64,000 bases of DNA, taken from positions 1,231 through 65,230 of the forward strand of contig DHVE01000053.1 in assembly GCA_002412495.1 (NCBI GenBank). Direction: 5' to 3'. The notes under the pieces are model-generated. The model did no database searches. It was not told where the DNA came from and was given only the letters and a program-made list of their open reading frames with translations. Shown piece after piece: positions 11,520-63,644 of this stretch. The number at the start of each line of letters is the position of its first letter. Within the stretch, counting starts at the first letter, position 1. Source of the DNA: Betaproteobacteria bacterium UBA5216 (GTDB taxonomy: Bacteria > Pseudomonadota > Gammaproteobacteria > Burkholderiales > SG8-41). Both the position numbers and the translations under genes were made by a program.

Positions 11520-12479
11520 CTAGTCCGCCTTCGCACCCGACGCACGCACCACCTTTGTCCACTTCGCGATTTCGGCACGCAGAAATTCGCCGCAGGCTTC
11601 GGCGGAACTTCCCACCGGCTCGGTGCCCAACGCCGCGAAGCGGTCTTTCACAGCGGGGCTATGCACCGCTTTCACGATTTCACTGTTGAGCCGCGCGATG
11701 ATGTCGCGCGGCACGCCGGCGGGCGCCAGCATCATGTACCAGCCAGTGACCTCGAAGCCGGGTACACCGGATTCCGAAACCGTCGGCACCTCTGGTGTAA
11801 GCGACAGCCGTTTGGGACCGGTAACCGCGATAGCGCGCAGCCGTCCACTCTTGATCGGGTTGATCGCCGCCGTGGTGCTGCTGATCATCAAATCAATTTC
11901 GCCGCTCATCAACGCAGTGGCTGCCTGTGCCGCGCTTTTGTACGGCACATGCACCAGCCTGGTTCCTGTCATGTTCTGAAACAACACGCCGCCCAGATGG
12001 TTGGCACTGCCATTGCCGGATGAACCGTAGGTAACGCGTCCTGATTTCGCCTTGGCAAGCGCGATGAGATCCTTCACCGTTCTGACCGGTACGCTGGGAT
12101 GCGTGGACAGAAAATACTGCCCGGTGGTCAGCTGCGAAATCGCTGCAAAATCCCGCAAGGTGTCGTACGGCAGCTTGGCTTGCAGACTGGGGTTGATCGA
12201 CAACTCCGGCGATGCTGTCACCAAGGTGTAACCATCTGGTGCGGCCTTGGCAGCAACTTCGGTGCCGATCACCGTGCCCGCGCCGGGACGGTTTTCCACC
12301 ACCACCGGCACGCCCATCTGCTCGGAAAGTTTCTGCGACACGATACGCCCGGTCACATCGGTGCCGCCGCCGGGCCCGAGCGCAACAATCATGCGTATCG
12401 CCCGACTGGGATAGTTTTGTGCGACCGCACTACCCGTGATGCAACCCGCCGCCAGCAACAGCGCCATCCGCTTGATCAT
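11520..12479 (-). CDS. Bug family (TctC-like) substrate-binding protein
   Basis: 319 aa. Signal peptide plus the NYPSRAIRMIVALGPGG signature. 4-nt overlap with the upstream VOC gene. Confidence 0.85.
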   Translation of the reverse strand: MIKRMALLLAAGCITGSAVAQNYPSRAIRMIVALGPGGGTDVTGRIVSQKLSEQMGVPVVVENRPGAGTVIGTEVAAKAAPDGYTLVTASPELSINPSLQAKLPYDTLRDFAAISQLTTGQYFLSTHPSVPVRTVKDLIALAKAKSGRVTYGSSGNGSANHLGGVLFQNMTGTRLVHVPYKSAAQAATALMSGEIDLMISSTTAAINPIKSGRLRAIAVTGPKRLSLTPEVPTVSESGVPGFEVTGWYMMLAPAGVPRDIIARLNSEIVKAVHSPAVKDRFAALGTEPVGSSAEACGEFLRAEIAKWTKVVRASGAKAD

Positions 12480-13672: not shown

Positions 13673-14662
13673 ATGAAACGTTTTCCCGGCTCCGTGTTGT
13701 TGATGATTACCCTGCTGTTTGGCATGCAGTTATCCATGCCGCTTGGAGCGCAACAGATCGGGACACAGCAATTTCCCTCGCGCCCCATACGCATGATGGT
13801 TCCGGCCGCCGCCGCGGGCGTCACCGATATCGCGGCTCGCGTGTTGACGGCACGCTTGTCGGAAGCGCTGGGGCAACCCGTGGTGGTGGACAATCGCGCC
13901 GGCGCGGGGGGCATCATCGGCACCGATATCGTTGCCAAGGCCGCGCCCGATGGCCACACGCTGATGACGGCGTTCGACAGTTTTATTTCCAATCCCTTTG
14001 TGTTCAAGAAAATACCGTACGACACCTTGAAGGATTTCGCGCCGGTTTCCCTGCTGATTCGCGGGCCGCAGATTTTTGCCGCTTCGCCGAAACTCGGCGC
14101 AAAATCATTTAACGAGTTCGTCGCCATCGCCAAGGGCAAACCCGGATCGATCCGTTACGCCACGGCGGGGCCGGCCACTTCGAGCCGCCTGTCGGTGGAA
14201 CTTTTCAAAGCCGTCAGCAAACTTGACGGTACGACGATTTTTTTCAAGGGTGGCGGCCCGGCGTTGAATGATCTGCTTGGCGGTCATGTTGACGTAATGA
14301 TCGCATCGGCGGGCCTGGTACTCAGCCACACCAAAAGCGGCCGTTTGTACGCGCTGGCGGTGAGCTCAAAAAACCGCACCGCGCTTGCGCCAGGGGTGCC
14401 TTCGGTCAGCGAGTTCTATCCGCAGTTCGAGGCGCAATCGTGGGTGGGCATGCTGGCCCCCGCCGCCACGCCGCGCGCCATCATTCTGCGGCTGAACGCC
14501 GAAGTCAACAAGGCGCTCGCCGACGCCGACGTGAAAGAACGCTTTAATACGCTGGGGTATGAAATCGCGGGTGGCGCGCCGGAACAATTTGGCGAATGGC
14601 TGCGCGCGGAATCGGTAAAATGGGGCAAAGTCATACGCGATAATCAAATCACGGCGGAATGA
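13673..14662 (+). CDS. Bug family (TctC-like) substrate-binding protein
   Basis: 329 aa. Signal peptide, FPSRPIRMMVPAAAAG, DNRAGAGG and PDGHTLM blocks. Confidence 0.85.
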   Translation: MKRFPGSVLLMITLLFGMQLSMPLGAQQIGTQQFPSRPIRMMVPAAAAGVTDIAARVLTARLSEALGQPVVVDNRAGAGGIIGTDIVAKAAPDGHTLMTAFDSFISNPFVFKKIPYDTLKDFAPVSLLIRGPQIFAASPKLGAKSFNEFVAIAKGKPGSIRYATAGPATSSRLSVELFKAVSKLDGTTIFFKGGGPALNDLLGGHVDVMIASAGLVLSHTKSGRLYALAVSSKNRTALAPGVPSVSEFYPQFEAQSWVGMLAPAATPRAIILRLNAEVNKALADADVKERFNTLGYEIAGGAPEQFGEWLRAESVKWGKVIRDNQITAE

Positions 14663-21202: not shown

Positions 21203-21916
21203 TCAGTTCGCGGTAGTGGATTCCGCAGGCCCCGCGGGCACAGCGGGTGTTGTCACGGTGTCCGTCACCGTAGCGACGGGCGGCGGTGACGGCGTGACCT
21301 GGGTTGGTGACGATGGTGCCACCGCCGCCTGTGCACGATCAAATTCCGCGAGGATCATATCGTTCAAGTCGGTTGGCAGCGGCACCAGCCGTTGACGCAG
21401 CACCGACGCCATTTGCTCGCGTGATTCAAGCGGCATTTTTTCATACTCGGCACGCGCTTCCTGCGCGATCTGCCGCTTGCGCTCAAAGGACAGCGCATTG
21501 ATTTGCTCGTGCGCCTGCCGCACGGCCGATGCCTTTATCGCCAGATCCGCAATGATGGCCGGCACTTCAGCGGCATTCTTGGGATCGGCAATGATGCGCC
21601 GCACGCTGACATACACTTCATTCCGCTGCGACGAAGTCAAATGTACAAAACCTTCATCGATGAGTAAACGCAACTGCGCGTCGCTTAATCCGAAGGTAGC
21701 TGAAAAATCCGCGCCGCCGGGTGGCGCGCGCGGCGCGACGACGTTCGAGCGACTCGCGCCCTCCACCGCGCTTTCCACCCCACTGGTAATGATTTTGTCG
21801 CGCAACAAACGCAGCAGGATCAGCGTCAATGGATCCGCAGCCTGCGCGGGCGCGCAGCCGATCGCCAGTGCGACAGCGCCTACAACGCTTCGGACGTGAC
21901 TTTTCACATGCCGCAT
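21203..21916 (-). CDS. Secreted hypothetical protein with a Pro/Thr-rich C-terminus
   Basis: 237 aa. Signal peptide (VVGAVALAIGCAPAQA). No family recognised. Confidence 0.55.
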   Translation of the reverse strand: MRHVKSHVRSVVGAVALAIGCAPAQAADPLTLILLRLLRDKIITSGVESAVEGASRSNVVAPRAPPGGADFSATFGLSDAQLRLLIDEGFVHLTSSQRNEVYVSVRRIIADPKNAAEVPAIIADLAIKASAVRQAHEQINALSFERKRQIAQEARAEYEKMPLESREQMASVLRQRLVPLPTDLNDMILAEFDRAQAAVAPSSPTQVTPSPPPVATVTDTVTTPAVPAGPAESTTAN

Positions 21917-22127
21917 GGCTCTTCCTCGTTTGGGAATCCTCTCAAAAAGTGACGACTGTTTGCGTCAGAGAGGTTCTAACCTTATGTTTTTTAGGCAAAA
22001 ATACGCTTGCCAGTTTAAATGTCAAGCGGACGGAGGCACCCAGTAATCGTCTAACGCCTCGCCGCGGCATCAGCGGAATGTGAATTTATTTTTTATAAAC
22101 AACAACTTATATTCATCTCGTGACAGC

Positions 22128-23219
22128 CTACGGCTTGCGTATACGCCCCGAGGAGAGGTTTTCAAGCGTTTGCAGACAACTGATGATTTCGCGCGATACC
22201 GCGGACAGTGATACCTGCTTGTCAACCGCGCCTATTTCAAATGCCACGCGCGGCATGCCATACACCACACAGCTGCCGGCGTCCTGCCCAATGGTCATGG
22301 CGCCAGCCTGCTTCATGTGCAACAGGCCCTGGGCCCCGTCCGTACCCATGCCGCTGAGAATCACGCCGACGGCATGCCGCCCCGCTTGCTGCGCCACGGA
22401 ATCAAACAGCGGGTCCACCGAGGGCCGGTGCCCATTCAGCAGCGGGCCGTCATTGAGCAACGTAATCCATCCACTGACGCCGCGCCCGAGTTTCAGATGC
22501 TGATTCCCAGGCGCAATGTAAACATGCCCGGGATGAAGAATATCGCCTTGCGAGGCTTCTTTTACCCTGAGTGCGCACATCGAATTCAGACGCGCGGCAA
22601 ACAGCCGCGTGAAGGGTTGTGGCAAGTGCTGCACGATCAGCACGGGCGGCACGCTTTCGGGCAATCCTTGCAGCACCGTTGTGATTGCTTCGATGCCCCC
22701 GGTGGAGGCGCCTATGGCGATCACCGCATTGCGAGCCGCCATCCCCAGGGTTACCGACGGTTGCGCCGACGCAGATTGGCTCCCCGCCCAGCCCCGGCCC
22801 GCGATCTGTGGCCCCGCCGCCGCCGCGATGCGCACCTTGCTTACGATGTCACTGGCGAACTGGGAGATCAGCGTGTTGCTCGTCTGCATCGCGGGCTTGG
22901 TGACAAAATCCACCGCGCCCAATTGCAATGCGCGCAATGTCGCCTCGCCGCCCGCCACGGTCAGCGTTGAGACCATGACCACCGGCATCGGGCGCAGGCG
23001 CATGATTTTTTCGAGAAAGGTCAGGCCATCCATGCGCGGCATCTCGATGTCGAGCAATACCACGTCGGGCGAAAGCGCCTTAATTTTTTCGCGCGCGTCA
23101 AACGGATCCTGCGCCGTGCCAGCCACCATCATGTCGGATTGCGCATTGACAAATTGCGCGATCAGCTCGCGCATGACCTGCGAATCGTCAACGATGATGA
23201 CACGCGTTTTCGCCGCCAC
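22128..23219 (-). CDS. cheB: Protein-glutamate methylesterase/glutaminase CheB
   Basis: 363 aa. REC domain (VIIVDDSQVMRE...DVVLLDIEMPRMDG) plus an esterase domain (IGASTGG, GMGTDGA). Confidence 0.9.
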   Translation of the reverse strand: MAAKTRVIIVDDSQVMRELIAQFVNAQSDMMVAGTAQDPFDAREKIKALSPDVVLLDIEMPRMDGLTFLEKIMRLRPMPVVMVSTLTVAGGEATLRALQLGAVDFVTKPAMQTSNTLISQFASDIVSKVRIAAAAGPQIAGRGWAGSQSASAQPSVTLGMAARNAVIAIGASTGGIEAITTVLQGLPESVPPVLIVQHLPQPFTRLFAARLNSMCALRVKEASQGDILHPGHVYIAPGNQHLKLGRGVSGWITLLNDGPLLNGHRPSVDPLFDSVAQQAGRHAVGVILSGMGTDGAQGLLHMKQAGAMTIGQDAGSCVVYGMPRVAFEIGAVDKQVSLSAVSREIISCLQTLENLSSGRIRKP

Positions 23220-23222
23220 GGC

Positions 23223-23849
23223 TTAGTCCTCGAACAATTCCACGCGGCTGCTGATCGATTTTTTCTCGATCTCGACGGCATAGGCGCGCTCGCGATCAAT
23301 CAGCGTATCGTTGTGCAACTGGCGCAGTTCCTTCACCAGCACCCGGCCCGATTCGACGAAGAAATACACCTTGCGGGCGTGATTGCCGCCGACGTCTTTT
23401 GCCACGACGGAAATGCCTTCGCGGTTCAGGTAAGCCAGCGCGAACTCCGCGTTGCGCGCACCGACATCGCTCATGCCGGGCAGCACGCGCCCCGCCCCGA
23501 ACACCTTGGCCACCAACCGGCCGCGGTGAGCGCCCATCGTCAACAAATTGTTGATCAGCATCTCCATCGCGTGCGCGCCATAACGCGCCGGCTCGCTCAC
23601 CACTGACTGCGAACCCGAACGGTCGGGCAGCATGAAATGATTCATGCCGCCAATGCGGGAAACCGGGTCCATCAGGCACACCGAAACGCACGATCCGAGC
23701 ACCGTCACGATCAGGATATTGCGCTGGCTGGCATATAACTCACCGGGCGCTATTTTCGCTGCGTGCATCGCGAAATGCGAATCGTAATACAAACCCGGGC
23801 TGTCATTTTCAAGATTGGGAAACGCGGTCCCGCGCGGCTTTTCGGTCAT
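23223..23849 (-). CDS. cheD: Chemoreceptor glutamine deamidase CheD
   Basis: The track ORF extends to 24059. I prefer the ATG at 23849 (MTEKPRG...), which makes an ATGA overlap with the cheR stop. LGSCVSVCL and GGMNHFMLP motifs. Confidence 0.85.
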   Translation of the reverse strand: MTEKPRGTAFPNLENDSPGLYYDSHFAMHAAKIAPGELYASQRNILIVTVLGSCVSVCLMDPVSRIGGMNHFMLPDRSGSQSVVSEPARYGAHAMEMLINNLLTMGAHRGRLVAKVFGAGRVLPGMSDVGARNAEFALAYLNREGISVVAKDVGGNHARKVYFFVESGRVLVKELRQLHNDTLIDRERAYAVEIEKKSISSRVELFED

Positions 23850-24697
23850 GGGTATCCTAAACGCGCCGCAGCCTGCGATGCATCGCTCGCGACGCGATAA
23901 GTCGTTGCGCCCAGCGGGGTGAACAAATCCTTTGCATTGAAAAATGCCTCTGAATGTCCGGCAAACAACAAGCCATGCGGTTGCCGCAGCAACGGCACAA
24001 AACGCTTGAGTATCCGGTACTGTGTTTCTTTGTCGAAATAGATCATGACGTTGCGACAAAAAATGGCATCAAACTGTCCTTCAATGGGCCATTCGGCCTG
24101 CATCAGGTTGAGCATGCGGAATTGAATGCCGCGCTTGAGATCGTCCTTTACTTTAACAAGCCCTTGGTAACTGCCATCGCCGCACAAGAAATATTTTTTC
24201 AACTGCGCCGCGTCCATCCCCTCGACCTTCTCGCGCTCGTAGATGCCGCGCTCGGCGCCTTGCAATACGGTGGTGTTGATGTCCGTGGCGAGGATGCTGA
24301 CCGGCACCTGTGAATCCTCCATGTATTCCCGGCAGGTAATCGCAATCGAATAGGGCTCTTCGCCCGACGCGCAACCGCAGCTCCATATGCGAGCCGGCCG
24401 GGGCGCCGCAGGCAATACCTGGTCCGCCAGAATACGAAAATGATGACGTTCGCGGAAAAAACTCGTCAGATTGGTGGTCAGTATATTGATAAACCGAGTC
24501 CACTCGTGCTGCCCCGCGTTATCCAGGTAATCGAGATAGGCGCGCACGGACTCCAGTCCGAGCCGGCGCAACTCCCGCGTCAGGCGGCTGTACACCATTT
24601 CTTTGCGCGTATCGCCCAAATGTATGCCGGCGATACGATACAGATGGTCCGCCACCCGCTCGTAATCCGATTGTTCGTATTTAAACTCCTTTGACAC
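23846..24697 (-). CDS. cheR: Chemotaxis protein methyltransferase CheR
   Basis: 283 aa. TSFFRERHHF and IWSCGCASGEEPYSIA SAM-binding motifs. Confidence 0.9.
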   Translation of the reverse strand: MSKEFKYEQSDYERVADHLYRIAGIHLGDTRKEMVYSRLTRELRRLGLESVRAYLDYLDNAGQHEWTRFINILTTNLTSFFRERHHFRILADQVLPAAPRPARIWSCGCASGEEPYSIAITCREYMEDSQVPVSILATDINTTVLQGAERGIYEREKVEGMDAAQLKKYFLCGDGSYQGLVKVKDDLKRGIQFRMLNLMQAEWPIEGQFDAIFCRNVMIYFDKETQYRILKRFVPLLRQPHGLLFAGHSEAFFNAKDLFTPLGATTYRVASDASQAAARLGYP

Positions 24698-24754
24698 CGT
24701 TATACGCTACTCAATCCTGGTAATCCTGTGCGCCCGCCGACCCTGTGTCCCGCG

Positions 24755-25246
24755 TTACGATGCCACTTTCTCGATCAGCTGCAGGTCTTCGCTGCTCATC
24801 AGGCGCTCGATGTCCACTACGATCAGCATGCGCCCCTCGACGGTTGCCATGCCGGAGATGAATTCCGTGTTGATGGTGGAACCAAAGCGCGGCGCTTCGC
24901 GAATTTCTTCCAGCGGAACCGCGATGACGTCCGATACACTGTCCACCACCACGCCTATCATTTTTTTATTTAAATTCAATATGATAACTATGGTTGTTGC
25001 ATCATAGCTCACGTTCGCAAGACGAAACTTGATGCGCAAATCCACGATCGGCACGATATTGCCGCGCAGGTTGATCACACCTTTGATGAAGTCGGGGGTG
25101 TTGGCAATAGACGTTACGGTGTCATAGCCACGTATCTCCTGCACTTTGAGTATATCGATGCAGTACTCTTCCTGGGCCAGCCGGAACGTCAGAAACTCTT
25201 TTTTTACCGCGGCACGCGCCGCATCGTCTGCTCGAACATCACTCAC
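24755..25246 (-). CDS. cheW: Chemotaxis coupling protein CheW
   Basis: 163 aa. The FLTFRLAQEEYCIDILKVQEIRGY pattern is typical of CheW. Confidence 0.9.
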   Translation of the reverse strand: MSDVRADDAARAAVKKEFLTFRLAQEEYCIDILKVQEIRGYDTVTSIANTPDFIKGVINLRGNIVPIVDLRIKFRLANVSYDATTIVIILNLNKKMIGVVVDSVSDVIAVPLEEIREAPRFGSTINTEFISGMATVEGRMLIVVDIERLMSSEDLQLIEKVAS

Positions 25247-25318
25247 TTGAACCTCCTGTATTTCTTCGCATGGTTACGCCAATACGCTATTAAGCTGATA
25301 CGTTAGTAGGCCGAACCG

Positions 25319-27343
25319 TCAGACCGCCACCACCCTGGGCGCATCCACGACTTTCGGAGCGCCCCGATGCTGTTCCTTGATGGATGCATGCTGCTTTACG
25401 ATTTCAGTGACATCCAGAATTAACGCCACCCTGCCGTCGCCCAAAATGGACGCGCCCGCCATGAAATCGACTTTCCGGTAATTCGCTTCGAGGCTCTTGA
25501 TCACCACCTGATCCTGGCCCAGCAGTTCATCCACCTGAAGTGCGATGGTGCGGTTTTCAACTTCCAGCACCACCAGAACCGACTGCTCCTGCGACGCCGT
25601 GTCCGGCAGGGCGCAAACGTCCGTGAGTTTCAGGATCGGTATATATTCGCCACGCAAATGAATCACGTGACCTTGCCCCACCACCGATTGGACCTGCGTG
25701 GCCGACACCTGCAGGCACTCGCGTATAAACGTAATGGGAATGATGTAGCGTTCATCGGCCGCTCCGACGATCATGCCATCCACGATCGCCAGCGTCAGCG
25801 GCAGATTGATCGTGAACGTCGTGCCCTTGCCCAGCGCCGAGGTGATATCGAGCGAACCGCCCAGTTTGCGCACGTTTTGGCTGACCACGTCCAAGCCCAC
25901 GCCCCTGCCCGATACGCTGCTCACTTTTTGCGCGGTGGAAAACCCCGGCTGCAAAAGCAACGCGAACATCGAAGCTTCGTCGAATTCACCTTCGGCTATC
26001 AATCCGATTTCCACCGCACGCCGGCGCACCAATTCAGGATTGATGCCACGCCCATCGTCCACCACCGTAATCACGAAGCGTCCGCCGCGGTGTTCAGCGT
26101 GTAACGACAGCGTGCCCTTGGCCGGTTTGCCGGCGGCCAGCCGGTCCGCGGGCAATTCGATGCCATGATCCAGCGCATTGCGTACCAGGTGTGTCAGGGG
26201 ATCCACCAATTGCTCAATGACGCTCTTGTCGAGTTCAGACTGTTCGCCGGAAATCTTTAGCTCGACGGCCTTGCCCAATTGCAAACCGAGATCGCGCACC
26301 AGGCGCGGGAACCGGCCAAACACGTGATTCACCGGCATCATGCGGATAGCCAGTATGCGTTCCTGGATATCCTGCACATTGCGTTCCAGTTGTGCAAAAA
26401 CGGAGACCGCGCGCGCATCCTTGATTGCGTCGAGATGCTGGGTCGATTGCTTGAGCATGGTATGCGTGATCACCAGCTCGCCGACCAGATTCACTAGGTC
26501 ATCGATTTTGTCGGTGCGCACGTGCATGGTCACCAGACCAACCTCGCGGCGCGCATCCGGCGAAAAATCCTCGGCGCGGCGCGCCGGTCTGGGCGCCGAC
26601 GGAGACTCGAGCATCACCGGCTCGGCAACCGGCTCGATTTCCAGCGCGCAGCAATTCGATACCCATTCGAATACGTCGCGGATGTCACCGATGGTAGCTT
26701 CGGTTTCCAATGAAATGCGCCACGCCAGATAGCAAGTTGTCGGCACGAATGTCCGCACGTCCGGCAGCGCGGATAAATCGACGATGCAACGCACCGTCCC
26801 GAGATGCGCCAGTTCCTCGATAAAGCGAGCGGGATCGTTGCCGCTGTGAAAAAAATCCTGCGCCGGACGAAACACGATCACATAGGCTTGCTTGGTTCGC
26901 GCAACCACCGTCTCGCCCGCGACCGCCTGCCCGCCAGCGGTCGCACCGCCAGTGCCGGCACGCAGCAACAACTGCAATTCCCTTACGATGCCAGCGCCCG
27001 CCGACGCATCGACCGGCTCCTGCGCCTCGGAAGCGAAGATCCAGTTACGCAGGCAATCCACGCCTCGCAGCAGCACGTTGGTGCATTCGGGAGTTGCCTG
27101 TGCCGTACCTTGACGGAGACGGTCCAGCATGGATTCCATCTCGTGCGCCAGTTCGGCGATGACGCCAAATCCCAGGCTACCCGCGGACCCCTTCAGCGAA
27201 TGTACTGCGCGGAAAATGCCATCCAGGGTTTCCTTGCTGTGCCCATGCTGTTCGAGCCGCAGCAAAGCCTGCTCCACGCTATCAAGGCCTTCGAGGCTCT
27301 CGGCAAAGAAGGTTGCGTGAAAACGGGAAAGATCAAGGCTCAT
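25319..27343 (-). CDS. cheA: Chemotaxis histidine kinase CheA
   Basis: 674 aa. Hpt (FRAVHSLKGSAGSLGF), N box (LVRNALDHGIE), G1 (DDGRGI), G2 (GRGVGLDVV) and a C-terminal CheW-like domain. Confidence 0.9.
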   Translation of the reverse strand: MSLDLSRFHATFFAESLEGLDSVEQALLRLEQHGHSKETLDGIFRAVHSLKGSAGSLGFGVIAELAHEMESMLDRLRQGTAQATPECTNVLLRGVDCLRNWIFASEAQEPVDASAGAGIVRELQLLLRAGTGGATAGGQAVAGETVVARTKQAYVIVFRPAQDFFHSGNDPARFIEELAHLGTVRCIVDLSALPDVRTFVPTTCYLAWRISLETEATIGDIRDVFEWVSNCCALEIEPVAEPVMLESPSAPRPARRAEDFSPDARREVGLVTMHVRTDKIDDLVNLVGELVITHTMLKQSTQHLDAIKDARAVSVFAQLERNVQDIQERILAIRMMPVNHVFGRFPRLVRDLGLQLGKAVELKISGEQSELDKSVIEQLVDPLTHLVRNALDHGIELPADRLAAGKPAKGTLSLHAEHRGGRFVITVVDDGRGINPELVRRRAVEIGLIAEGEFDEASMFALLLQPGFSTAQKVSSVSGRGVGLDVVSQNVRKLGGSLDITSALGKGTTFTINLPLTLAIVDGMIVGAADERYIIPITFIRECLQVSATQVQSVVGQGHVIHLRGEYIPILKLTDVCALPDTASQEQSVLVVLEVENRTIALQVDELLGQDQVVIKSLEANYRKVDFMAGASILGDGRVALILDVTEIVKQHASIKEQHRGAPKVVDAPRVVAV

Positions 27344-27367
27344 GTCGTTATCGCTGAAACCGCATCG

Positions 27368-28681
27368 TCAAAATTCCTTCCAGTCGCCATCGTCTCTGGA
27401 GCCGCCGCGCGGCGCCGACGCTAGGCTGGCGGCGGCAACAGCCGGCCCCGCTGAACGGACGGCGACCGCCACGGCGGCTGCTGGTTCAGGCGCGCGGCCG
27501 GCCGCGCCGGACGTTCCGGACGTTCCAACCGTACCGGGCGCAGCGGCGCGCCGGGAAGTACCAGCGACGTTACGCCGGTGATCGAGAAGAACCCTGTCGT
27601 TCTCGTCAATCTTGAACACGCGCGTCATTTCGCGCAGGCGCTGTGCCTGCGTGCGCATGGAATCGGCCGCGGCCGTCGCCTGCTCCACGACTGCAGCATT
27701 CTGCTGCACGACCTCATCCATCTGAAGAATCGCCAGATTGATCTGGTCGATACCGCTGGATTGATCAGCCGAGGCATTGCTGATTTGGTCTATGATTCCA
27801 CTGAGGTTTGCGACGGAATCCACGATTTCATTCATCGTCTTGCCGGCGTTTTCAACCAGCCGGGTGCCCGCATCGACCTTTTCAACGGAGTTGCCGATCA
27901 ATACCTTGATCTCCTTCGCGGCCTCCGCGGATCGCTGCGCAAGGCTGCGAACCTCGGAAGCCACCACCGCAAACCCCCGGCCTTGTTCGCCGGCACGCGC
28001 GGCCTCAACGGCGGCGTTCAACGCGAGAATATTTGTCTGAAATGCGATGCCATCGATAACGGAAATAATATCCGAAATCTTGCGCGAGCTTTCCTGGATA
28101 TCGTTCATGGTCAGCACCACATCGCCCACGACTCTTCCGCCGTTTGCCGCCACCACATTCGCGCTTTTTGCCAGTACATTTGCCTTGCGCGCGCTCTCGG
28201 TGTTTTCCTTCACCGCGGCAGTCAACGCTTCCATGCTGGACGCGGTTTGCTCCAGGGTCGAAGCCTGTTCTTCCGTGCGCTGAGACAGATTGTTATTGCC
28301 ACTCGCCACTTCGTTGGCCGACGTGGCGATGGCTTCCGCGCTGTCGCGAATATCACTCACCATGCGCGTGAGATTTTCATCCATGGTCTTAAGCGCCAGC
28401 ATCAGTTTGCCGAATTCGCCGCGCCCATCGGTTTCTATCGTCACGGTCAAGTCGCCGGCGGCCACCCGATTTGCCAGCGACACCGCCGTCGCGAGCGGTA
28501 TGCTAATGGCGCGCAAGGTAACTATCCACATGACCATCAGCAGCATGATCGTTACCACGACCAGCCCCACCATCACATTACGCGGCCCACCCTGCAAGTG
28601 CATGATACCCACCACCGCCATGCCCAGAATCAGCGCAAGCAAAAACGCAACGCCCAGCCGCAAACTGCTCTTAACGGTCAT
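27368..28681 (-). CDS. Methyl-accepting chemotaxis protein (two TM helices, no periplasmic domain, HAMP, C-terminal DWKEF)
   Basis: 437 aa. Canonical hairpin tip ([39 protein letters not shown]) and the [15 protein letters not shown] block. The two TM segments are about 10 residues apart. Low-complexity tail ending in DWKEF. Confidence 0.9.
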
Positions 28682-28718
28682 CTAGATACTCTCTAATTAC
28701 CTTCTAATCCAAAAAATG

Positions 28719-29084
28719 CTAAGCCGGCAGCACCTTGCGCAACACGTTCAGCAGCGCTTCCGGATCAAAGGGTTTGACTATCCAGCCCGTCGCGCCCGCC
28801 GCGCGCCCCTTGGATTTCATTTCCGGTTGCGATTCGGTGGTCAACAGTATGATCGGCACAAATTTGTACTCGGGCAACTTGCGTAACTCCGCGACCAGTT
28901 CGATCCCCGTGCGCCCCGGCATGTTCACGTCCGAAATCACCAGATCAAACCGTTGTGTTTGCGCCAGCGCGAGCGCCTCGTCGGTGTTGCCGGCTTCGGC
29001 GACCTTGTGTCCAGCCGAGGCCAGCGTGAAATTGACCATCTGCCGCATGGTCATGGAGTCATCAACAATCATGATATTCGACAC
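28719..29084 (-). CDS. cheY: Single-domain response regulator CheY
   Basis: 121 aa. IMIVDDS..., DLVISDVNMPG, WIVKPF. Confidence 0.9.
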   Translation of the reverse strand: MSNIMIVDDSMTMRQMVNFTLASAGHKVAEAGNTDEALALAQTQRFDLVISDVNMPGRTGIELVAELRKLPEYKFVPIILLTTESQPEMKSKGRAAGATGWIVKPFDPEALLNVLRKVLPA

Positions 29085-29100
29085 AACTCTCTCCCGAAAT

Positions 29101-30450
29101 CTAGAATAACTCTACGTCTACTTTTTGTACTTTACCGGGCGCCAAGTCCTCGCGAACCGCGATACGCGATTCACCCTCCGAAGCCGAGGCGCCATCCGCG
29201 GCACGCGCCAAACCCGCGGCGCGCGTATTGGATTCGGAGTCCGAAAGGGACTCCGCCGCCTTCGCCAACAGCGGCGCCTTGATGTGCTGAAGTTTTTGCT
29301 GGGTAATATCCTGATACTGCATCGCGACGATAATCTGATTGATATCGTTGCGCACATCCTTGCCCAGCGAGGTGATCTTCTCCAGCGTGGTGGTGACCTC
29401 CCGCGCCTTTTCCATCGTGGCGATGTTGAGCTGCGACACATCTACCTTGGCCTGCACGGCCGCCAGCCGCACATTGTCGCTGGATTTACTCAACTCTTCG
29501 TAAGTGCCGCCCATCACTTCACGGATCTTCTCCAGACCATCGCGCATGCGGCGCGTCAACTCATGTGCCGATGTGCTGGTCTCGCGAATGCGGTCTGCAA
29601 TTTCAACAAACCAGCGGCCATCGGCATTGGCGTCGCGGTTGGCCGCCACCGTGGAATCGAGCGCCAGCTTGCGAATTCGCGCCGCCATGTTGCGCAATTC
29701 GTCCAGCATTTCGTCTATTGCCAGTGAATGTTCTCGCACCACATCCTGATGGCGTGACATTTCTTCGGATGCCTTGGAAAAATCCATCATGCGGCTGGTA
29801 ACGTTATCCAGTTGCCGTTCGTACGCCGTGATGAAATCAGGCAACGACAACCAGGCAGATCCACCAGCCCCGTCGGCCGAACTGCTCTTTAGCAGCCGCA
29901 CGGCACTGTCCATTTGCTGCCCGGTCTTGTCCATGATGACGCGAAAGCTCTTGCCGATCTTCGCGGCAGCCGCCTCGGATTGCTGAGTCACGTCGTCCAG
30001 AGACGCGCGCGCATGCCGGATGCTATCTCCCGCGATATGCGACGATTCCATCCATTGGTTCAGCAAACCTTGCATCAGCGCCATCGACTGCGCGGTGGCA
30101 ACCGCATCACCCGTATTGCGCACCGGCGTGTCCGTCGCCTGCGCGGGCGCTGATTCCGCGCGGCTGGCCATCACATGGTAAATCAGGAATAACGACACCA
30201 CCGAAAACACCAGCGAAACGCCCGCAACCCACAACGGCACCGCCCACACACCCCATATCCAGGGAAGCAGCACGGCCGCCGCGCACAGCGCCAGCGCCTT
30301 GCCTTTTCCCTTATCCTGCCGCTGCGCCCGCTCCTTGTTTTTTTCTGTTTCGGGCTTTTCCACCTTTATGGCGCCGCCACCAGCACTGGCGTTTCCACCA
30401 CGGGACGTCCCACCACCCTCCGGCTCGCTGAGATCGAAATCGACGCTCAC
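29101..30450 (-). CDS. Degenerate MCP-like membrane protein (no canonical signalling tip)
   Basis: 449 aa with a GTG start. Gly/Lys-rich N-tail and two adjacent TM helices. The long helical region retains recognisable but diverged versions of the MCP tip (LALDSTVAANRDANADGRWFVEIADRIRE versus [30 protein letters not shown]) and of the QMDxxTQQNA block (AMQYQDITQQKLQ). Confidence 0.6.
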   Translation of the reverse strand: MSVDFDLSEPEGGGTSRGGNASAGGGAIKVEKPETEKNKERAQRQDKGKGKALALCAAAVLLPWIWGVWAVPLWVAGVSLVFSVVSLFLIYHVMASRAESAPAQATDTPVRNTGDAVATAQSMALMQGLLNQWMESSHIAGDSIRHARASLDDVTQQSEAAAAKIGKSFRVIMDKTGQQMDSAVRLLKSSSADGAGGSAWLSLPDFITAYERQLDNVTSRMMDFSKASEEMSRHQDVVREHSLAIDEMLDELRNMAARIRKLALDSTVAANRDANADGRWFVEIADRIRETSTSAHELTRRMRDGLEKIREVMGGTYEELSKSSDNVRLAAVQAKVDVSQLNIATMEKAREVTTTLEKITSLGKDVRNDINQIIVAMQYQDITQQKLQHIKAPLLAKAAESLSDSESNTRAAGLARAADGASASEGESRIAVREDLAPGKVQKVDVELF

Positions 30451-30770
30451 GTATCCCCTCCCAATACCGCGTCTATCGCCAGCAGCGAAAGCAACTCGCT
30501 CAAGCGCTCCGACGGATTATTAATCCGTACTGATTTCCCTTGTTCACGCGCACGCACCACGGCGACAGCCAGCAGCTGTGCCAGGGCCGTATCCGGTCGA
30601 GCCACCGCGGACGCATCCAGTTCCACCACTGCATGCGCTTGCAGGCGATCGCGAATCTCTTTCCAGATTTCGTCGATTTCGCGTATTCCGGCGTCCGCGG
30701 CAAGAGCGTATGAATTAGTAGGCACTTTTATTATGACTGACGATGATCCAGCACAGTTTGGTGGATGCAC
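30447..30770 (-). CDS. STAS domain protein (anti-sigma-factor-antagonist-like)
   Basis: 107-aa ORF with a GTG start (the start is uncertain). VVELDASAVARPDTALAQLLAVAVVRAREQGKSVRINNPSERLSELLSLLAID resembles a STAS/SpoIIAA-like fold pattern. Its stop overlaps the next gene's start (GTGA). Confidence 0.6.
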   Translation of the reverse strand: MHPPNCAGSSSVIIKVPTNSYALAADAGIREIDEIWKEIRDRLQAHAVVELDASAVARPDTALAQLLAVAVVRAREQGKSVRINNPSERLSELLSLLAIDAVLGGDT

Positions 30771-30957: not shown

Positions 30958-32076
30958 TTACTTGCCGCGCATCTCGGCCATCGAGCGCGCATACTGCCCA
31001 TCGGAGCGCTTTAACGCTCGGGTAACCGCCTTGGTCGCGCCAAACGTAGGTATCACCGCCGAGTGCTTGCCGGCGCCGCCAATCACGGCAATCAGCAGAT
31101 TGTCAGCGTTGTGTATCATGGGCACTGGCGCGTCCATTCCGGCATTTTTGTAGACAGAGGCAAATGCCACTCGAAAGCGCCGTTCAATGTTCTCTTTGGA
31201 AAACGTCCCCAGCGGAAGCGTCGCGTGTTGTGCGATGAATTGCTTGGCTGCCCGCTTGCTGATGCCGTCATTGGCGATAGTCGCGGCGTGTTCCGGCCCC
31301 ATCACCACCAGCGGCATGGCGTCGGGATAATAGATGTCGTTCGAGCCGGTTGAAATCAGGGTGCCCGCGATGGTCTTGAGGATGCCTTCACCGCTGATGC
31401 TTTCATGATCGTTCACGTTATGCGGGCACTCCCCGCCGACCACCGTGACGCAAGTGGCTTCACGGGGGAAACCCCGCTCCACATGCAGCGGCACCCAGGG
31501 GTTTCCTGCTTCGTTTTCAGCCACGCAATAGGAATATTTGTTCGGCCCGCCGAATGTGGACATATCGCCAAGCGCGGGGATGGCACCGCCAATATTCAAT
31601 AAAATCAATCGGATAGCGCGCCCTATCGTGGCATTGCTATGAGTCCCGGGACCAAAGGCATTGTGCCCGCTGTTCATGCCCAGTTCTTTCGCCCCGGGGC
31701 CATTGACGATGACCAGCGGTGAACACATATGTGTGGTCGCCTGAATCCCATACAGGTTAAAGGCCTCGTCGCACATGGCCTCGACCGCCAGAATAATCAA
31801 CGGAAAATATTCCGGCTTGCAACCGGCCATAACCGCATTCGCCGCCAAACGCACGGGCGTAGCCTCGCCATAACGCGGCGCTACCTTGCCCACCGGCTCA
31901 TTCCACGGGCGATCACAGTACTCCAGCATCGCGGCGACTCGTTCCTCCGTGGGCGGTATCAGCGGCAGGCCGTCTCCCCATCCCTTTTCCAGATAAAGCG
32001 CGTTTATTGAAAAGAAATCGTCCTTGGCTTCCAAGCTAGCATCCGGGGCTTTTAACAATGCCGAAAGATCGTTCAC
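30958..32076 (-). CDS. Conserved hypothetical protein, translationally coupled to the UGSC selenoprotein
   Basis: 372-aa ORF with coding-like composition. ATGA overlap with the upstream gene's stop. No family recognised (GWGDGLPLIPPT, several Cys). Confidence 0.65.
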   Translation of the reverse strand: MNDLSALLKAPDASLEAKDDFFSINALYLEKGWGDGLPLIPPTEERVAAMLEYCDRPWNEPVGKVAPRYGEATPVRLAANAVMAGCKPEYFPLIILAVEAMCDEAFNLYGIQATTHMCSPLVIVNGPGAKELGMNSGHNAFGPGTHSNATIGRAIRLILLNIGGAIPALGDMSTFGGPNKYSYCVAENEAGNPWVPLHVERGFPREATCVTVVGGECPHNVNDHESISGEGILKTIAGTLISTGSNDIYYPDAMPLVVMGPEHAATIANDGISKRAAKQFIAQHATLPLGTFSKENIERRFRVAFASVYKNAGMDAPVPMIHNADNLLIAVIGGAGKHSAVIPTFGATKAVTRALKRSDGQYARSMAEMRGK

Positions 32077-32621
32077 TTCGAATGCTCCTTGATCAACTTC
32101 ACAAACTCAGGGATGGCCACTCCCGCGCGCCCTTCGACTTTTTCCAGCGAAATTCCGCCCAGCGGATGCGGTATTACGATCAATGGCAAATCCGGCACGC
32201 CAAACACGCGCGATTGCGCCTTACCCAGTTTCAGGAAGGGATCCGTACAGATTACCGCCGTTACCAAACCGCGTTTACGTAACTCTGACATATCGTGGAC
32301 ACTCCACGATGTGCAGGAACCTCAATCCGCCATGGCGCTGATGACGCAATCCGCCTGGGCGGTGAATTCATCCAGCACATTTTTCTCGGCCGGAATCGAT
32401 GGCGACGGCTTCCGGAGCGCCACCACGGAAGCCACCTTCATTTGCGCCTTCACCCCTTCCACAATGAACTTCAGCAGGTGGTCTGCGTTGCCTTTGCTGT
32501 TATCGAGAATGCCGAGCCGTATGCCGTCAACGGATAAGTCACGTTGTCGCCCGGTCGCAATTGCCGCTGGCGGCGGCGCTTCGGGCACCACCAATCTCAC
32601 CATTGCCATGGTATTGCTCAT
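32073..32621 (-). CDS. UGSC family selenoprotein (in-frame TGA at 32322-32324 read as Sec); the ORF track splits it into 32322..32717 and 32073..32291
   Basis: The TGA and the downstream ATG at 32291 are 33 nt apart, so they are in frame. Read-through gives ...DCVISAMAD-U-GSCTSWSVHD-MSELRKRG.... There is a hairpin 11 nt downstream of the TGA. The preferred start is the ATG at 32621 (MSNTMAMV), preceded by GGAGG. Confidence 0.7.
32292..32310 (-). promoter_or_regulatory. Candidate bacterial SECIS hairpin
   Basis: The minus-strand RNA AUCGUGGA-GUG-UCCACGAU forms a perfect 8-bp stem with a G/U-containing apical loop. It starts 11 nt after the UGA. Confidence 0.5.
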
Positions 32622-32886
32622 GAAATTACCTCCAAACTGTCGGGAAGCTGCCGACTTTATCGTATGCGCTGCCCTGCGGCAAACCCGTAAGGCGTTGACC
32701 CAAAAATGCACTGTCAATCAAGAGATTAGCTCCGCCAAGCCGCGTTTGGTGGCCCAATACCCCGATGTCTTTATTTCTAATAGCATTTGAACATGTCTCA
32801 GGATATCCTGTACCTGTTTTCAATAACCAACCGGCAACAAATGACCGTGTATCCATCGGCCACGAATACTTGCACTAAAGGGTCTG

Positions 32887-35544
32887 GTGCATACGCTATC
32901 CCGCAAGGAGCGACCCGCTCCCGTCTTGATCTGCGGCGACAAGGTGCTCGAATTGCCTGAGCGCCTGCTGCGAAATTCCATTGCAAGGAAGGTCTCCCTA
33001 GGCATCGCCACTATCGTCTTGGCGACTGCTACCGCAATGCTGATAACGCACTACGTATCGTCCGTCGCGGTACATTCGTTGCAGGAATCTCACGATCTCG
33101 TGCAGGCCATGACCAGCGCGGCCAGCGACATGGAGTTCGATACGGTATCGGGCGGAATAAGTGTTTTGCAATATCTCCAAACCGGTGATCCGGCTTATCG
33201 GGACGCCTATCAGCGGCACAGTACGCACTTTCGGCAATACTCGGACCGGTTGCTCGCTCTGGCTCGATTCGAACAGTGGCAAAAACCCGCACGCGCCATA
33301 GCCAGCCAATTCAATGAGCTGGACCGCATCAGCACCAGCCTCATTGCGCTGCCGGTAGCCGGCGACGGCACCAGCCATCCCTCGGCCGTGCCACTGCAGG
33401 ACCATCGCGCTCAACTGGACAGAATGTCGGTTCTGCAGCAACAGATAGTTACCACCATAGCCACCCAGCTCAAGCCCACACTCAAACTGTACACCATTGA
33501 AGCCGCCGATACCGCAAGCCGGCAGATGCTGCGCGTCCTGCTGCTGGCCGGCGGTACGTCGCTGGGCCTGCTTTTATTATCATTGCTGGCGGCCCGTTAC
33601 GTACGGCGCTCGATTATTGAACCGGTGCGAAAACTCTCGGCCAGTACCGACGCCATTGCGCGTGGGGATCTCGACCATCGCGTCATTCTCGCCGGCAACG
33701 ATGAATACTCCGACCTGGCGAAAAACTTTAATTACATGATCGATCAGTTGCAGAGCACCACGGTCTCCCGGGCGCTGCACGAGGAACAGGAAATACGCCT
33801 GCGGACGCTGCTGGACGGTGTCTACGACTACGCCATTTTTTCCGTCGATGCGCATGGTTTTGTCAATCACTGGAACCAGGCAAGCACGCGCATCCTCGGC
33901 TATGACGCCGCCGACATGCAAGGCGTGTCGTTTGCGCGAATCTTCGCGGACAAGCAGGATGCGCGGCTGGCGCGCGACGAGGGACTCGCGGCCATCGCGG
34001 AAGCAGGCCGCTTTGAAACCGACAGCAGCCTGACTCGCAAGGATGGCACAACGTTCCACGCCAACGTTGTCGTCACGCCATTAACGGCAGTGCACAGTGA
34101 AATCAAGGGATATACCGTGGTGGTGCGCGATATCACGGAACGCGTGAAAGCCGAGCGACACATTGAACAACTCGCCACCAAAGACCCGCTGACTGGTTTG
34201 TCGAATCGCGGCATGCTGATTGAACAGATGCACACGGCCATTGTCCGGGCGGCGCGCGCGCGAACCCAACTGGCGGTTCTGTTTATCGATCTCGATCACT
34301 TCAAGGCGGTCAACGATACCTTGGGACACGCGGCCGGCGATGATTTATTGCGGGAGTGCGCGAGACGCCTGACGGAATGCGTGCGCGAGCTCGACTCGGT
34401 GGCGCGCCTCGGGGGCGACGAATTCGTGGTGCTATTGACCGACATTATCGACACCAGCATCGTTGCTCCCATCGCGCAACGCATGCTGGATTTACTCACC
34501 ACCCCCTACGAACTGCACGGCCATAGCGCCCAAACGTCCGCCAGCATCGGCATTTGTTTCTATCCCATGGACGGTAACGACGTTACTACCTTGATGAAAA
34601 ACGCCGATATCGCGATGTACCATGCCAAGGAACTGAACCGCAACAATTTCCAGTTTTACGCCGAAGAGATGAACCAGCGCATATTGCAACGGCTTCAGCT
34701 GGAACGTGAATTGCGCGCTGCCGTGCAAAATGGCGAATTCGTACTGCATTACCAGCCGCAAGTCGTCGTGGCCACCGGAAAAATTCGCGGCGTCGAGTCG
34801 CTGGTGCGCTGGCAGCATCCCTCGCGAGGGCTGTTATCTCCCGCCGAATTCATCTCGGTAGTGGAGGAAACCGGCTTGATCCTGCCGTTGGGTGAATGGA
34901 TTTTGAATGAAGCCTGCCGCACGGTTAAAGCCTGGCGCAAAACGGGTGTCAACGTGCCTTATGTTGTCGTCAATGTGTCCGCGGCACAATTGGGCGACGG
35001 CTTGGTGACCGCCGTCAGAAACGCGTTGATTGAGCACGAAATGGAGCCTGGCTGGCTGATGCTCGAAATCACCGAAACCATGCTAATGGCACACGTGGAA
35101 GAAGCCATTGCCATCCTGCGGCGCATTCGTGAGTTGGGTATACGAATCGCGATGGATGATTTCGGTACTGGCTATTCATCGCTCAGCGTACTGCAGCGCC
35201 TGCCACTCGACATGCTTAAAATCGACCGCAGTTTTGTCGTCACCATAGACGACGACGCCGGCAACGCGCGCGCCGTGGCTATTATCGGCGCCATTATCGC
35301 CATTGCCAAAGAGCTCAACCTCGGTGTCGTTGCCGAAGGCGTCGATTCAACCACGCAGCTGGCGTTCCTCCGCACACTGAACTGCGATACCTATCAAGGA
35401 TATCTTTTCAGCAAACCCGTGGATGCCGCCGCGATTGAAAGGTTATTCGCGGCGCCCGTAAGATCCGTGCTCGAAGATCATAACGGGCGCGCGATTACCA
35501 TGACAACCAAAGTTTCCATGGAATTGCCGGTCGATGCGCATTGA
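32887..35544 (+). CDS. Membrane sensor diguanylate cyclase/phosphodiesterase (periplasmic domain-HAMP-PAS-GGDEF-EAL)
   Basis: 885 aa. Two TM segments flank a periplasmic region of about 160 aa. HAMP (IARGDLDHRV), PAS, GGDEF (RLGGDEFVVLL) and EAL domain blocks (ESLVRW, DDFGTGYSSL, KIDRSFV). GTG start, uncertain. Confidence 0.85.
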   Translation: MHTLSRKERPAPVLICGDKVLELPERLLRNSIARKVSLGIATIVLATATAMLITHYVSSVAVHSLQESHDLVQAMTSAASDMEFDTVSGGISVLQYLQTGDPAYRDAYQRHSTHFRQYSDRLLALARFEQWQKPARAIASQFNELDRISTSLIALPVAGDGTSHPSAVPLQDHRAQLDRMSVLQQQIVTTIATQLKPTLKLYTIEAADTASRQMLRVLLLAGGTSLGLLLLSLLAARYVRRSIIEPVRKLSASTDAIARGDLDHRVILAGNDEYSDLAKNFNYMIDQLQSTTVSRALHEEQEIRLRTLLDGVYDYAIFSVDAHGFVNHWNQASTRILGYDAADMQGVSFARIFADKQDARLARDEGLAAIAEAGRFETDSSLTRKDGTTFHANVVVTPLTAVHSEIKGYTVVVRDITERVKAERHIEQLATKDPLTGLSNRGMLIEQMHTAIVRAARARTQLAVLFIDLDHFKAVNDTLGHAAGDDLLRECARRLTECVRELDSVARLGGDEFVVLLTDIIDTSIVAPIAQRMLDLLTTPYELHGHSAQTSASIGICFYPMDGNDVTTLMKNADIAMYHAKELNRNNFQFYAEEMNQRILQRLQLERELRAAVQNGEFVLHYQPQVVVATGKIRGVESLVRWQHPSRGLLSPAEFISVVEETGLILPLGEWILNEACRTVKAWRKTGVNVPYVVVNVSAAQLGDGLVTAVRNALIEHEMEPGWLMLEITETMLMAHVEEAIAILRRIRELGIRIAMDDFGTGYSSLSVLQRLPLDMLKIDRSFVVTIDDDAGNARAVAIIGAIIAIAKELNLGVVAEGVDSTTQLAFLRTLNCDTYQGYLFSKPVDAAAIERLFAAPVRSVLEDHNGRAITMTTKVSMELPVDAH

Positions 35545-36526
35545 TGCCCCGCGCTGCCTGGCCGCGGCTTGCGTGTTCCTGACTGCAGGCTGTTTCGCGC
35601 AAACCGCAACACCGGGATCCACGCCTGCGTATCCGTCCAAGCCCATCCGTCTGATACACGGTTACGCATCGGGCAGTTCGATGGATCTCAACGCGAGAAC
35701 GGTCGCGCAGAGGCTCTCGGAAGCGTTCGGGCAACAAGTCATCGTGGATATCCGGACCGGCGCCACCGGTGTGATCGCGGCGGAGTTGGTCATGAACAGC
35801 GTTGCCGACGGATACACCTTGCTAGCCGCGCCGGGCTCCGCCCTGACCGCCACACCGCATTTGCAGAAGGTGCCGTTTGATCCGTTGAAGGACTTCACCG
35901 CCATCGCCCCCTTCGGGGATTTTTCGTTTCTGCTGGCGGGACATCCTGCTTTGCCGGCAAAAAATGCCCGCGACCTTATTGCAATGGCGAAAGCGCGCCC
36001 CGGCAACCTGTCGTATGGCTCCAATGGGGTGGGCAGCGCCTATCACATCGCCGGCGCCTTGTTCGCCACCCTGGCCGGCATACAGTTGCTGCATGTGCCG
36101 TATCGTGGCGGGGGCGCCACGGCCATCACCGATCTGGTCAGCGGGCGCGTTGATATGATGTGGAATAACCCTGCTTTTCTACTGCCGAATGTGCGGGCCG
36201 GCAAACTCAAGGCACTTGGCGTCACCGGCCGGCAGCGCATACCTGGAATCAAAGACGTGCCGACGATTGCCGAAAGCGGATTGCCCGGCTATGAGATATC
36301 CGGCTGGCAAGGTCTGCTCGGCCCTGCGCACCTGCCCAAGGGCGTGGTAGCCCGCCTGCACGGGGCGCTGCTCGATGCGTTTTCCACATCCGCCATGCAA
36401 ACCCTCTGGGAATCGCGCGGCATGACCTTCGTGCAACAATCGCCCGAACAATTTTCCCTGCGTCTGCGCCAGGATTTCGAGACCTATGGCAAACTGATCC
36501 GGCAGGTGGGCAACAAAATCGACTGA
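35534..36526 (+). CDS. Bug family (TctC-like) substrate-binding protein
   Basis: 330 aa. Signal peptide, then AYPSKPIRLIHGYASGS. The ATG overlaps the end of the GGDEF-EAL gene by 11 nt. Confidence 0.85.
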   Translation: MRIDAPRCLAAACVFLTAGCFAQTATPGSTPAYPSKPIRLIHGYASGSSMDLNARTVAQRLSEAFGQQVIVDIRTGATGVIAAELVMNSVADGYTLLAAPGSALTATPHLQKVPFDPLKDFTAIAPFGDFSFLLAGHPALPAKNARDLIAMAKARPGNLSYGSNGVGSAYHIAGALFATLAGIQLLHVPYRGGGATAITDLVSGRVDMMWNNPAFLLPNVRAGKLKALGVTGRQRIPGIKDVPTIAESGLPGYEISGWQGLLGPAHLPKGVVARLHGALLDAFSTSAMQTLWESRGMTFVQQSPEQFSLRLRQDFETYGKLIRQVGNKID

Positions 36527-54019: not shown

Positions 54020-54226
54020 CAGTATCTCCTCGGTGTGTTGCCGCAAGAACGGCCCCCTCTTGGTGGGGATATTGGCCGGGATAGTGGCGAAGATGTATTC
54101 AGCCATTTAACCTCATAGTATCGCGCTTCAATCAATAACTATCCAGTGAATAAAATGGCCCACTACATAACCAAATGGTAATTTCCCCATAGTCCGGAAA
54201 GTTCTGTTGGAAAACGCAGGCTGGGG

Positions 54227-63613: not shown

Positions 63614-63644
63614 ACTTATCGCCTCCCTCCTTAGCCAACGCAAT

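Follow-up and report, generated by a model that had tools for sequence, protein, structure and literature searches.

An in-frame UGA, a SECIS-type hairpin and a partner gene at a UGSC-family locus split by gene calling in a Burkholderiales metagenome-assembled genome

Does an in-frame TGA on the minus strand of contig DHVE01000053.1 end a small gene, or does it encode selenocysteine (Sec, U) within a larger one? The question is posed by a stretch of 64,000 nucleotides from Betaproteobacteria bacterium UBA5216 (assembly GCA_002412495.1, contig positions 1,231 to 65,230; hereafter the window, in whose own numbering all of its coordinates are given), where an original prediction made from the letters alone joined two open reading frames (ORFs) across the TGA into a single selenoprotein with a U-G-S-C motif. 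Our analysis shows that positions 32621-32073 of the minus strand form a single gene with a conserved UGA, a hairpin of the selenocysteine insertion sequence (SECIS) type that is tied to this UGA, and a translated tail. As a whole, the locus is very probably best explained as one UGSC selenoprotein gene in which Sec is inserted at the UGA via the SECIS and whose product acts with that of an adjacent partner gene.

The minus strand around the site reads ATG GCG GAT TGA GGT TCC TGC ACA TCG TGG AGT GTC CAC GAT ATG TCA GAG. The second ATG (32291) lies 33 nt past the TGA (32324-32322) with the frame unchanged, and ten open codons, translated as GSCTSWSVHD, separate the two, just as the original prediction had described; the frame then closes at the TGA at 32075-32073. 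Translation from ATG 32621 gives 99 residues, U and a further 82 residues, which places U at position 100 and agrees with the 182 residues and the end coordinate proposed earlier. This ATG is likely to be the start, and the N-terminus that it yields aligns with the N-termini of the orthologs; in tblastn searches, matches in genome loci span residues 1-182 of the joined protein. The 131-aa ORF (32322..32717) on which the prediction had been built does exist, but it is a mechanical ORF from a TTG start. A scan of the 265-nt gap between the UGSC gene and the divergent GGDEF/EAL gene found no sigma-70-like promoter. In public gene calls (GCA_900299225.1, OMJD01000199.1) the locus is split into products of 99 and 72 aa, both of which match PF24696, as had been anticipated for standard ORF calling. 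The window begins beyond the end of that record, its coordinates being those of OMJD01000199.1 plus 3217, and so belongs to a longer sibling contig.

That split can also be taken at face value. The TGA would then be a true stop, produced by a nonsense mutation or a sequencing error, and the locus would be either a pseudogene or a pair of independent genes of 99 aa and 72 aa, the latter starting at ATG 32291; standard gene calling yields exactly these two products, and an ATG does stand within a short distance of the TGA. Comparison of related loci argues against both versions. A scan of one genome per species yielded 426 relatives, and the best 80 loci, with 61-93% identity to the window protein, were analysed. 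Their host records are all uncultured Burkholderiales or Betaproteobacteria metagenome-assembled genomes (MAGs), many from lakes, and some of the records are evidently mislabelled "Bordetella parapertussis" or "Streptomyces". The TGA is kept at the Sec column in all 80 loci, which belong to different species, with U-G-S-C in 78 and a U-G-A-C paralog in the other two. Orthologs that end at this position with varied stop codons, an outcome that would have spoken for termination, were never seen, and each of the 80 has TGA followed by a conserved in-frame tail, 82 residues long in 78 of the 82 genes and 81-86 residues long overall. The two U-G-A-C paralogs (L074:3292-3351 and L083:3301-3360) have the same SECIS, and their MAGs also hold a UGSC copy (L006 and L011).

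Selection acts on the sequence past the TGA as well. With the window sequence as reference, median pN (nonsynonymous differences) is 0.197 and median pS (synonymous differences) 0.670 over the 71 codons past the hairpin, a ratio of 0.29, compared with 0.40 for the 70 codons upstream; the tail is therefore translated and under purifying selection. At the protein level the ten codons between TGA and ATG do not vary, and they encode the same residues as in Cys homologs, while ATG 32291 is the Met of the conserved motif, lies inside the hairpin and has no ribosome-binding site of its own. We give next to no credence to the TGA as a true stop, whether of a pseudogene or of two separate genes.

The joined protein, searched with U replaced by C, belongs to a known family. 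It passes both NCBIfam NF041046, "UGSC family (seleno)protein", marginally (125.6 bits, cutoff 125), and Pfam PF24696, "UGSC" (139.7 bits, cutoff 25), which bears out the earlier assignment of the U-G-S-C motif; NF041046 is matched by 72 of 72 aligned family members. A homolog search that covered 5.8 billion proteins returned two populations. The close relatives, at 60-87% identity, are about 100-130 aa long and every one ends ...AMAD, because gene callers stop at a Sec codon. The full-length homologs, of about 175-180 aa, come mostly from Acidimicrobiia and other Actinobacteria at 33-44% identity, and the Cys forms among them align colinearly across the TGA, with AMAD-U-GSCTSWSVHD opposite ADCGSCTSWSVHD and the Cys motif CGSCTSWSVHD; colinear Cys-containing orthologs had been named in advance as a check of the joined reading. 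Among full-length homologs in the protein database the nearest is P0001 (JGI 3300075153, a 995-nt contig; 56% identity), which has Trp at the Sec position (ADWGSCTSW). It may be that the gene caller applied an alternative code to a TGA there, or the codon may be a genuine TGG.

The Trp of P0001 fits an explanation in which the UGA is read through without selenium, by near-cognate insertion of Trp or Cys or by reassignment of UGA to sense. Against this explanation, TGA terminates the window gene itself and is the final stop in 78 of the 82 UGSC genes, and neighbouring genes are ordinary frames under table 11. TGA thus serves as an ordinary final stop, so that the standard code applies and a reassigned code is excluded.

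In the minimum free energy (MFE) fold, the stem of the SECIS hairpin (Table 1) begins 11 nt past the UGA, after the spacer GGN UCN UGC AC, and its 8-bp portion is GUCGUGGA/UCCACGAC, for which the window has AUCGUGGA/UCCACGAU. At codons +3 to +10 there is next to no synonymous variation, with a single codon used in 95-100% of 81 orthologous sequences: TCG, AGT and GTC occur in all 81, TGC, ACG and GAC in 80 each, and CAC in 77. Other columns of the UGSC gene with an invariant residue use two to six codons each, for example D-9 (GAC in 43, GAT in 38) and K+16 (AAA in 42, AAG in 39), and G+1, G+18, L+19 and V+23 use three to five synonymous codons each. Across the 71 distinct sequences, 710 of 710 pair cells (100%) hold a standard pair, compared with 14-45% when the 3′ arm is shifted by 1-3 columns as a control. 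In the window and in L005 the bottom pair of the 8-bp stem is A-U in place of G-C, a change of both partners, and G-C changes to G-U at one pair four times. Covariation in the hairpin is real but sparse, because the hairpin is nearly invariant.

A second set of loci, 80 from metagenomes recruited with a Cys-form query, served as a Sec/Cys control, the comparison being limited to loci that keep TSWSVHD. All 12 distinct TGA forms in this second clade use ACG TCG TGG AGT GTC CAC GAC, the same hairpin as in Betaproteobacteria. AGT is found in none of the 17 distinct TGC/TGT forms, so that the loop U is lost, and 11 of these have GTG, which breaks a G-C pair, and 5 have ACC. The GTC codon occurs in 12 of 12 TGA forms versus 6 of 17 with Cys, and the same proportions hold for an intact 8-bp stem (12/12 Sec versus 6/17 Cys). 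Loop U and closing pair taken together are seen in all 12 TGA forms and in none of the 17 Cys forms. In a Cys-only subfamily (metagenome loci L113-L168) the peptide is relaxed to CGSCTAYSV[YHVTF]D, and the conservation of TSWSVHD is therefore partly imposed by the RNA. One TGA form occurs among these L113-L168 loci; it reads U-G-S-C-T-A-S-S-V-H-D, with downstream sequence that lacks the standard hairpin.

Published criteria for bacterial SECIS elements (bSECIS), from the bSECISearch model, are a loop of 3-9 nt, a stem of 4-16 bp, a UGA-to-loop distance of 16-37 nt, an MFE of at most -7.5 kcal/mol, and a loop whose first or second base is a G, with G or U next (PMC13188914). The window hairpin falls within all of these bounds, with a 3-nt loop that has G and then U, an 8-bp stem, 19 nt from UGA to loop and an MFE of -15.5 kcal/mol.

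Several results nevertheless weigh against Sec decoding at this locus. The window hairpin taken alone is not exceptional against shuffled sequences (z = -1.3), and Rfam at gathering thresholds reports only a tRNA-Pro and no match to a SECIS family. Covariation is thin, involving one pair in two sequences, and partial pairing potential persists in the Cys forms, as the intact stem in 6 of 17 indicates. The NF041046 score lies only 0.6 bit above its cutoff. Finally, no tRNA-Sec, selA, selB or selD is found within the 64-kb window or the fetched related loci, a result that also favours readthrough without selenium. That alternative has to contend, beyond the stop-codon usage described above, with a hairpin of SelB-type features that co-varies strictly with TGA as opposed to TGY, and with a family that is established as a Sec/Cys family, and we consider it very improbable. 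Under Sec decoding, which we prefer, events would follow the established bacterial pathway: SelB carrying Sec-tRNA(Sec) would bind the hairpin on the translating mRNA and deliver Sec to the UGA, and the outcome would be a 182-residue protein with Sec100 and Cys103 in U-G-S-C.

With which protein would this selenoprotein work? The gene that follows it overlaps its stop codon (Table 1), and the UGSC gene and the 372-aa partner are translationally coupled. The GTGA overlap together with a product of about 370 aa is found in 75 of 82 loci, and GCA_900299225.1 (OMJD01000199.1) encodes an identical copy of the partner protein, as do five to six further contigs. In metagenomes, every one of the 28 loci of at least 3 kb has a partner homolog within 1.5 kb of UGSC. 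The two genes are adjacent in Actinobacteria as well, in either order. Two actinobacterial loci (L086:3181-6543 and L087:2382-6537) each hold a pair of divergent UGSC-partner modules, set back to back with one on either strand; in one module UGSC is followed by the partner, and in the other the partner is followed by UGSC, start and stop overlapping. The U-G-A-C paralogs L074 and L083 have no partner gene within the fetched flanks; some copies may therefore act alone or in trans.

Fusions join the two proteins directly. The partner family is very large, with more than 7900 matches in 90% clusters; of the representative clusters at 50% identity, 6013 match at E <= 0.001 and 1715 do so at E <= 1e-30. 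Among the best 150 of the partner representative clusters, 50 (about a third) carry UGSC sequence. Fourteen of these 50 have a full N-terminal Cys-form UGSC, whereas 31 start with the post-U tail only, which is the look of a Sec-form fusion cut at its UGA; in three the order is reversed and the sequence stops at ...GD, directly ahead of the U, and two have a full or near-full N-terminal UGSC that the cutoffs of the tally left unclassified. In one member, P0282, the partner domain is fused to a Pyr_redox_2 domain resembling thioredoxin reductase. A UGSC fused to an unknown domain, 'Unknown_1', is described in the Global Ocean Sampling (GOS) paper (PMC2398784, figure S1A), and this domain is probably the 372-aa partner family.

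The partner itself offers few clues from known domains and structures. Neither Pfam at E <= 10 nor NCBIfam gives it a match, and profile sequence searches of the PDB with UGSC and with the partner return nothing below E = 0.7. Members 37-56% identical to the window protein share a single near-invariant cysteine, C86 (NAVMAGC), as well as G36 (DGLP), R153 (IGRA) and a GGxG(K)HS loop. The AlphaFold2 model of the partner is confident (predicted local distance difference test score, pLDDT, 83.5; predicted template-modelling score, pTM, 0.85), and a Foldseek comparison of this model with the PDB gives no match, the best having E = 0.11, with template-modelling (TM) scores of at most 0.19. Recurring Foldseek matches to Toblerone/YjgF-like or PurM-like folds, the latter including SelD, are too weak to be trusted.

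The fold of UGSC was approached through P0001, the homolog with W at the Sec position, modelled with 70 homologs in place of the window protein itself, a substitution that limits what the model says about the latter. The AlphaFold2 model (pLDDT 87.6) is a parallel sheet of five beta-alpha units, flavodoxin-like, with the Sec position between strand 3 and helix 3 and the Cys in the first turn of helix 3. Foldseek against the PDB matches lumazine synthase, TIR, the FtsZ N-domain and flavodoxin domains of flavodiiron proteins with TM scores of 0.4-0.5, and there is no thioredoxin fold among the 50 matches listed. By this indirect route, UGSC models as a flavodoxin-like or Rossmann-like protein and not as a thioredoxin-like one, which differs from the thioredoxin-like fold guessed for it in the literature (GOS, PMC2398784).

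The GOS paper's first suggestion, that UGSC is a free-standing thioredoxin-like thiol:disulfide oxidoreductase, would make the neighbouring gene incidental. It has the UxxC motif in its favour, as well as the U-G-A-C paralogs that lack an adjacent partner. The five-stranded parallel alpha/beta model and its flavodoxin-like Foldseek matches argue against the thioredoxin-like part, and an incidental neighbour is hard to reconcile with the GTGA overlap in most loci, the adjacency in all 28 further loci and the fusions in a third of the best partner clusters. As such, we judge this suggestion unlikely.

A different kinship emerges from profile searches. TIGR01917 (GrdB) is matched by 35 of 72 UGSC members at E <= 0.01, and a few members also match the GrdH, GrdF and generic selenoprotein-B models. 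The window protein aligns to TIGR01917 with E = 9e-5, residues 86-165, which include U100, falling on positions 333-406 of the 431-position model; its 21.5 bits stand against a membership cutoff of 602.2. From these alignments, UGSC looks like a minimal distant relative of the Sec-bearing module of selenoprotein B, and it is not a member of that family.

In UGSC proteins the UxxC motif is conventionally taken for a redox-active selenenylsulfide centre, as it was in the original prediction. Because of the UxxC motif, its position at a helix N-terminus, the kinship with GrdB, the UGSC-partner fusions and the fusion to a thioredoxin-reductase-like domain, we propose that UGSC and its partner may form a two-subunit (or fused) Sec-dependent oxidoreductase. 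In this model Sec100 would act as the nucleophile and be resolved by Cys103 into a redox-active selenenylsulfide; the site for the substrate would come from the partner, where the near-invariant C86 is a candidate relay, and thioredoxin-type electron donors would recycle the Sec100/Cys103 centre. The basis of the model counts against it to some degree, consisting as it does of gene context, fusions, a weak GrdB match and a single thioredoxin-reductase-like fusion. We therefore offer only tentatively, as a serious possibility that falls somewhat short of probable, the view that UGSC and its partner are an uncharacterised and very widespread Sec/Cys two-component reductase, derived from the Sec module of selenoprotein B but at work in aerobic Betaproteobacteria and Actinobacteria, with a catalytic subunit whose fold is modelled with confidence and unmatched in the PDB. 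If this is true, the UGSC-partner operon offers a route to the function of a selenoprotein family that ranks among the most abundant in the environment and has been unexplained since 2007.

Beyond the UGSC-partner pair, no conserved neighbours were found in the 80 loci, which places the chemotaxis-like cluster (Table 1) and the GGDEF/EAL gene outside the system. In L003 a block of bactofilin, glutathione peroxidase (GPx), LysR and major facilitator superfamily (MFS) genes directly follows the pair, whereas the window has the chemotaxis-like cluster in between; this looks like an insertion in the window or a deletion in the relative L003. Elsewhere in the window, the overlapping ORFs called for an MmgE/PrpD-family gene point to frameshifts, whether of a pseudogene or of a faulty assembly. 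TctC/Bug-family periplasmic receptors account for at least a dozen of the window's genes, as is typical of Burkholderiales.

Table 1 Features of the window (coordinates in window numbering)
Feature	Position	Strand	Remarks
UGSC-family selenoprotein gene	32073..32621	-	182 codons plus stop, Sec = codon 100; one frame, open except for the TGA
GGAGG ribosome-binding site	32629..32633	-	7 nt 5′ of ATG 32621; read from sequence
UGA codon very probably read as selenocysteine (U100)	32322..32324	-	motif D-U-G-S-C; TGA column conserved in orthologs
Bacterial SECIS hairpin	32289..32313	-	2 outer pairs, C/A mismatch, 8-bp stem 32310-32303/32299-32292, GUG loop 32302-32300
Partner gene, 372 aa	30958..32076	-	uncharacterised family; GTG start overlaps the UGSC stop (GTGA)
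Chemotaxis-like cluster	~21900-30730	-	STAS, 449-aa unknown, response regulator, methyl-accepting chemotaxis protein (MCP) with HAMP, CheA, CheW, CheR, CheD, CheB
MmgE/PrpD-family gene	~54227-55640	-	called as three ORFs (107, 242 and 121 aa) that overlap and differ in frame
TctC/Bug-family genes (examples)	2521-3531, 11520-12479, 13673-14662, 35534-36526, 53048-54106, 62648-63703		

For annotation, the locus shows clearly how one selenoprotein gene can enter a public MAG as two hypothetical ORFs. The nearly constant 25-nt SECIS, UGC ACG UCG UGG AGU GUC CAC GAC AUG, is a simple signature with which such split genes can be rescued. As a single instance the gene adds little to biology, the family being already known. 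What sharpens the question of the role of UGSC is the obligate partner without a PDB-matching fold, the fusions in both orders, the thioredoxin-reductase-like fusion, the GrdB-type ancestry and the non-thioredoxin fold. The partner family together with the UGSC chemistry is the part worth following, and the partner is the second protein that experiments must include.

How, then, does the locus compare with systems already described? The UGSC family was mentioned as early as 2007, with Hyphomonas neptunium and an Olavius symbiont as its sources (PMC1976440), was then found to be a major selenoprotein family in the GOS data, with 255 Sec versus 21 Cys forms (PMC2398784), and is placed by reviews under NF041046 with its function "largely uncharacterized" (PMC13188914, PMC9312934). 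The window gene shares with the 'UGSC-containing protein' of Zhang and Gladyshev (Hyphomonas neptunium ABI76733.1, the Olavius symbiont and GOS) the U-G-S-C motif, the length of about 180 aa, the in-frame TGA with a hairpin downstream, and the occurrence of Sec and Cys forms side by side. Nothing essential differs; the window copy comes from the MAG of an uncultured freshwater or soil-type Burkholderiales and is split in gene calls. It is a new, mis-split member of a family known since 2007-2008.

The hairpin resembles the bSECIS consensus and the element of E. coli fdhF in its 3-nt loop starting with G-U, its 8-bp upper stem and its location inside the coding region. The minimal fdhF element also has an 11-nt spacer to the stem, the same as in the UGSC hairpin. 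The two sequences are unrelated, however, and no bulged U is evident in the UGSC hairpin, which hardly varies over two phyla and seems to restrict the peptide TSWSVHD.

The selenoprotein B subunits of glycine, sarcosine, betaine and D-proline reductases (GrdB, GrdF, GrdH and PrdB; TIGR01917 and TIGR01918) are similar to UGSC in a weak but repeated local manner over their C-terminal Sec stretch. The UxxC motif is common to both (Table 2 of PMC2398784). Like UGSC, selenoprotein B has an obligatory second subunit. UGSC, however, has only about 180 residues, and no similarity was seen between its partner and GrdE or PrdA. The hosts also differ, as selenoprotein B belongs to amino-acid-fermenting Firmicutes, whereas UGSC is found in aerobic-type Betaproteobacteria and in Actinobacteria.

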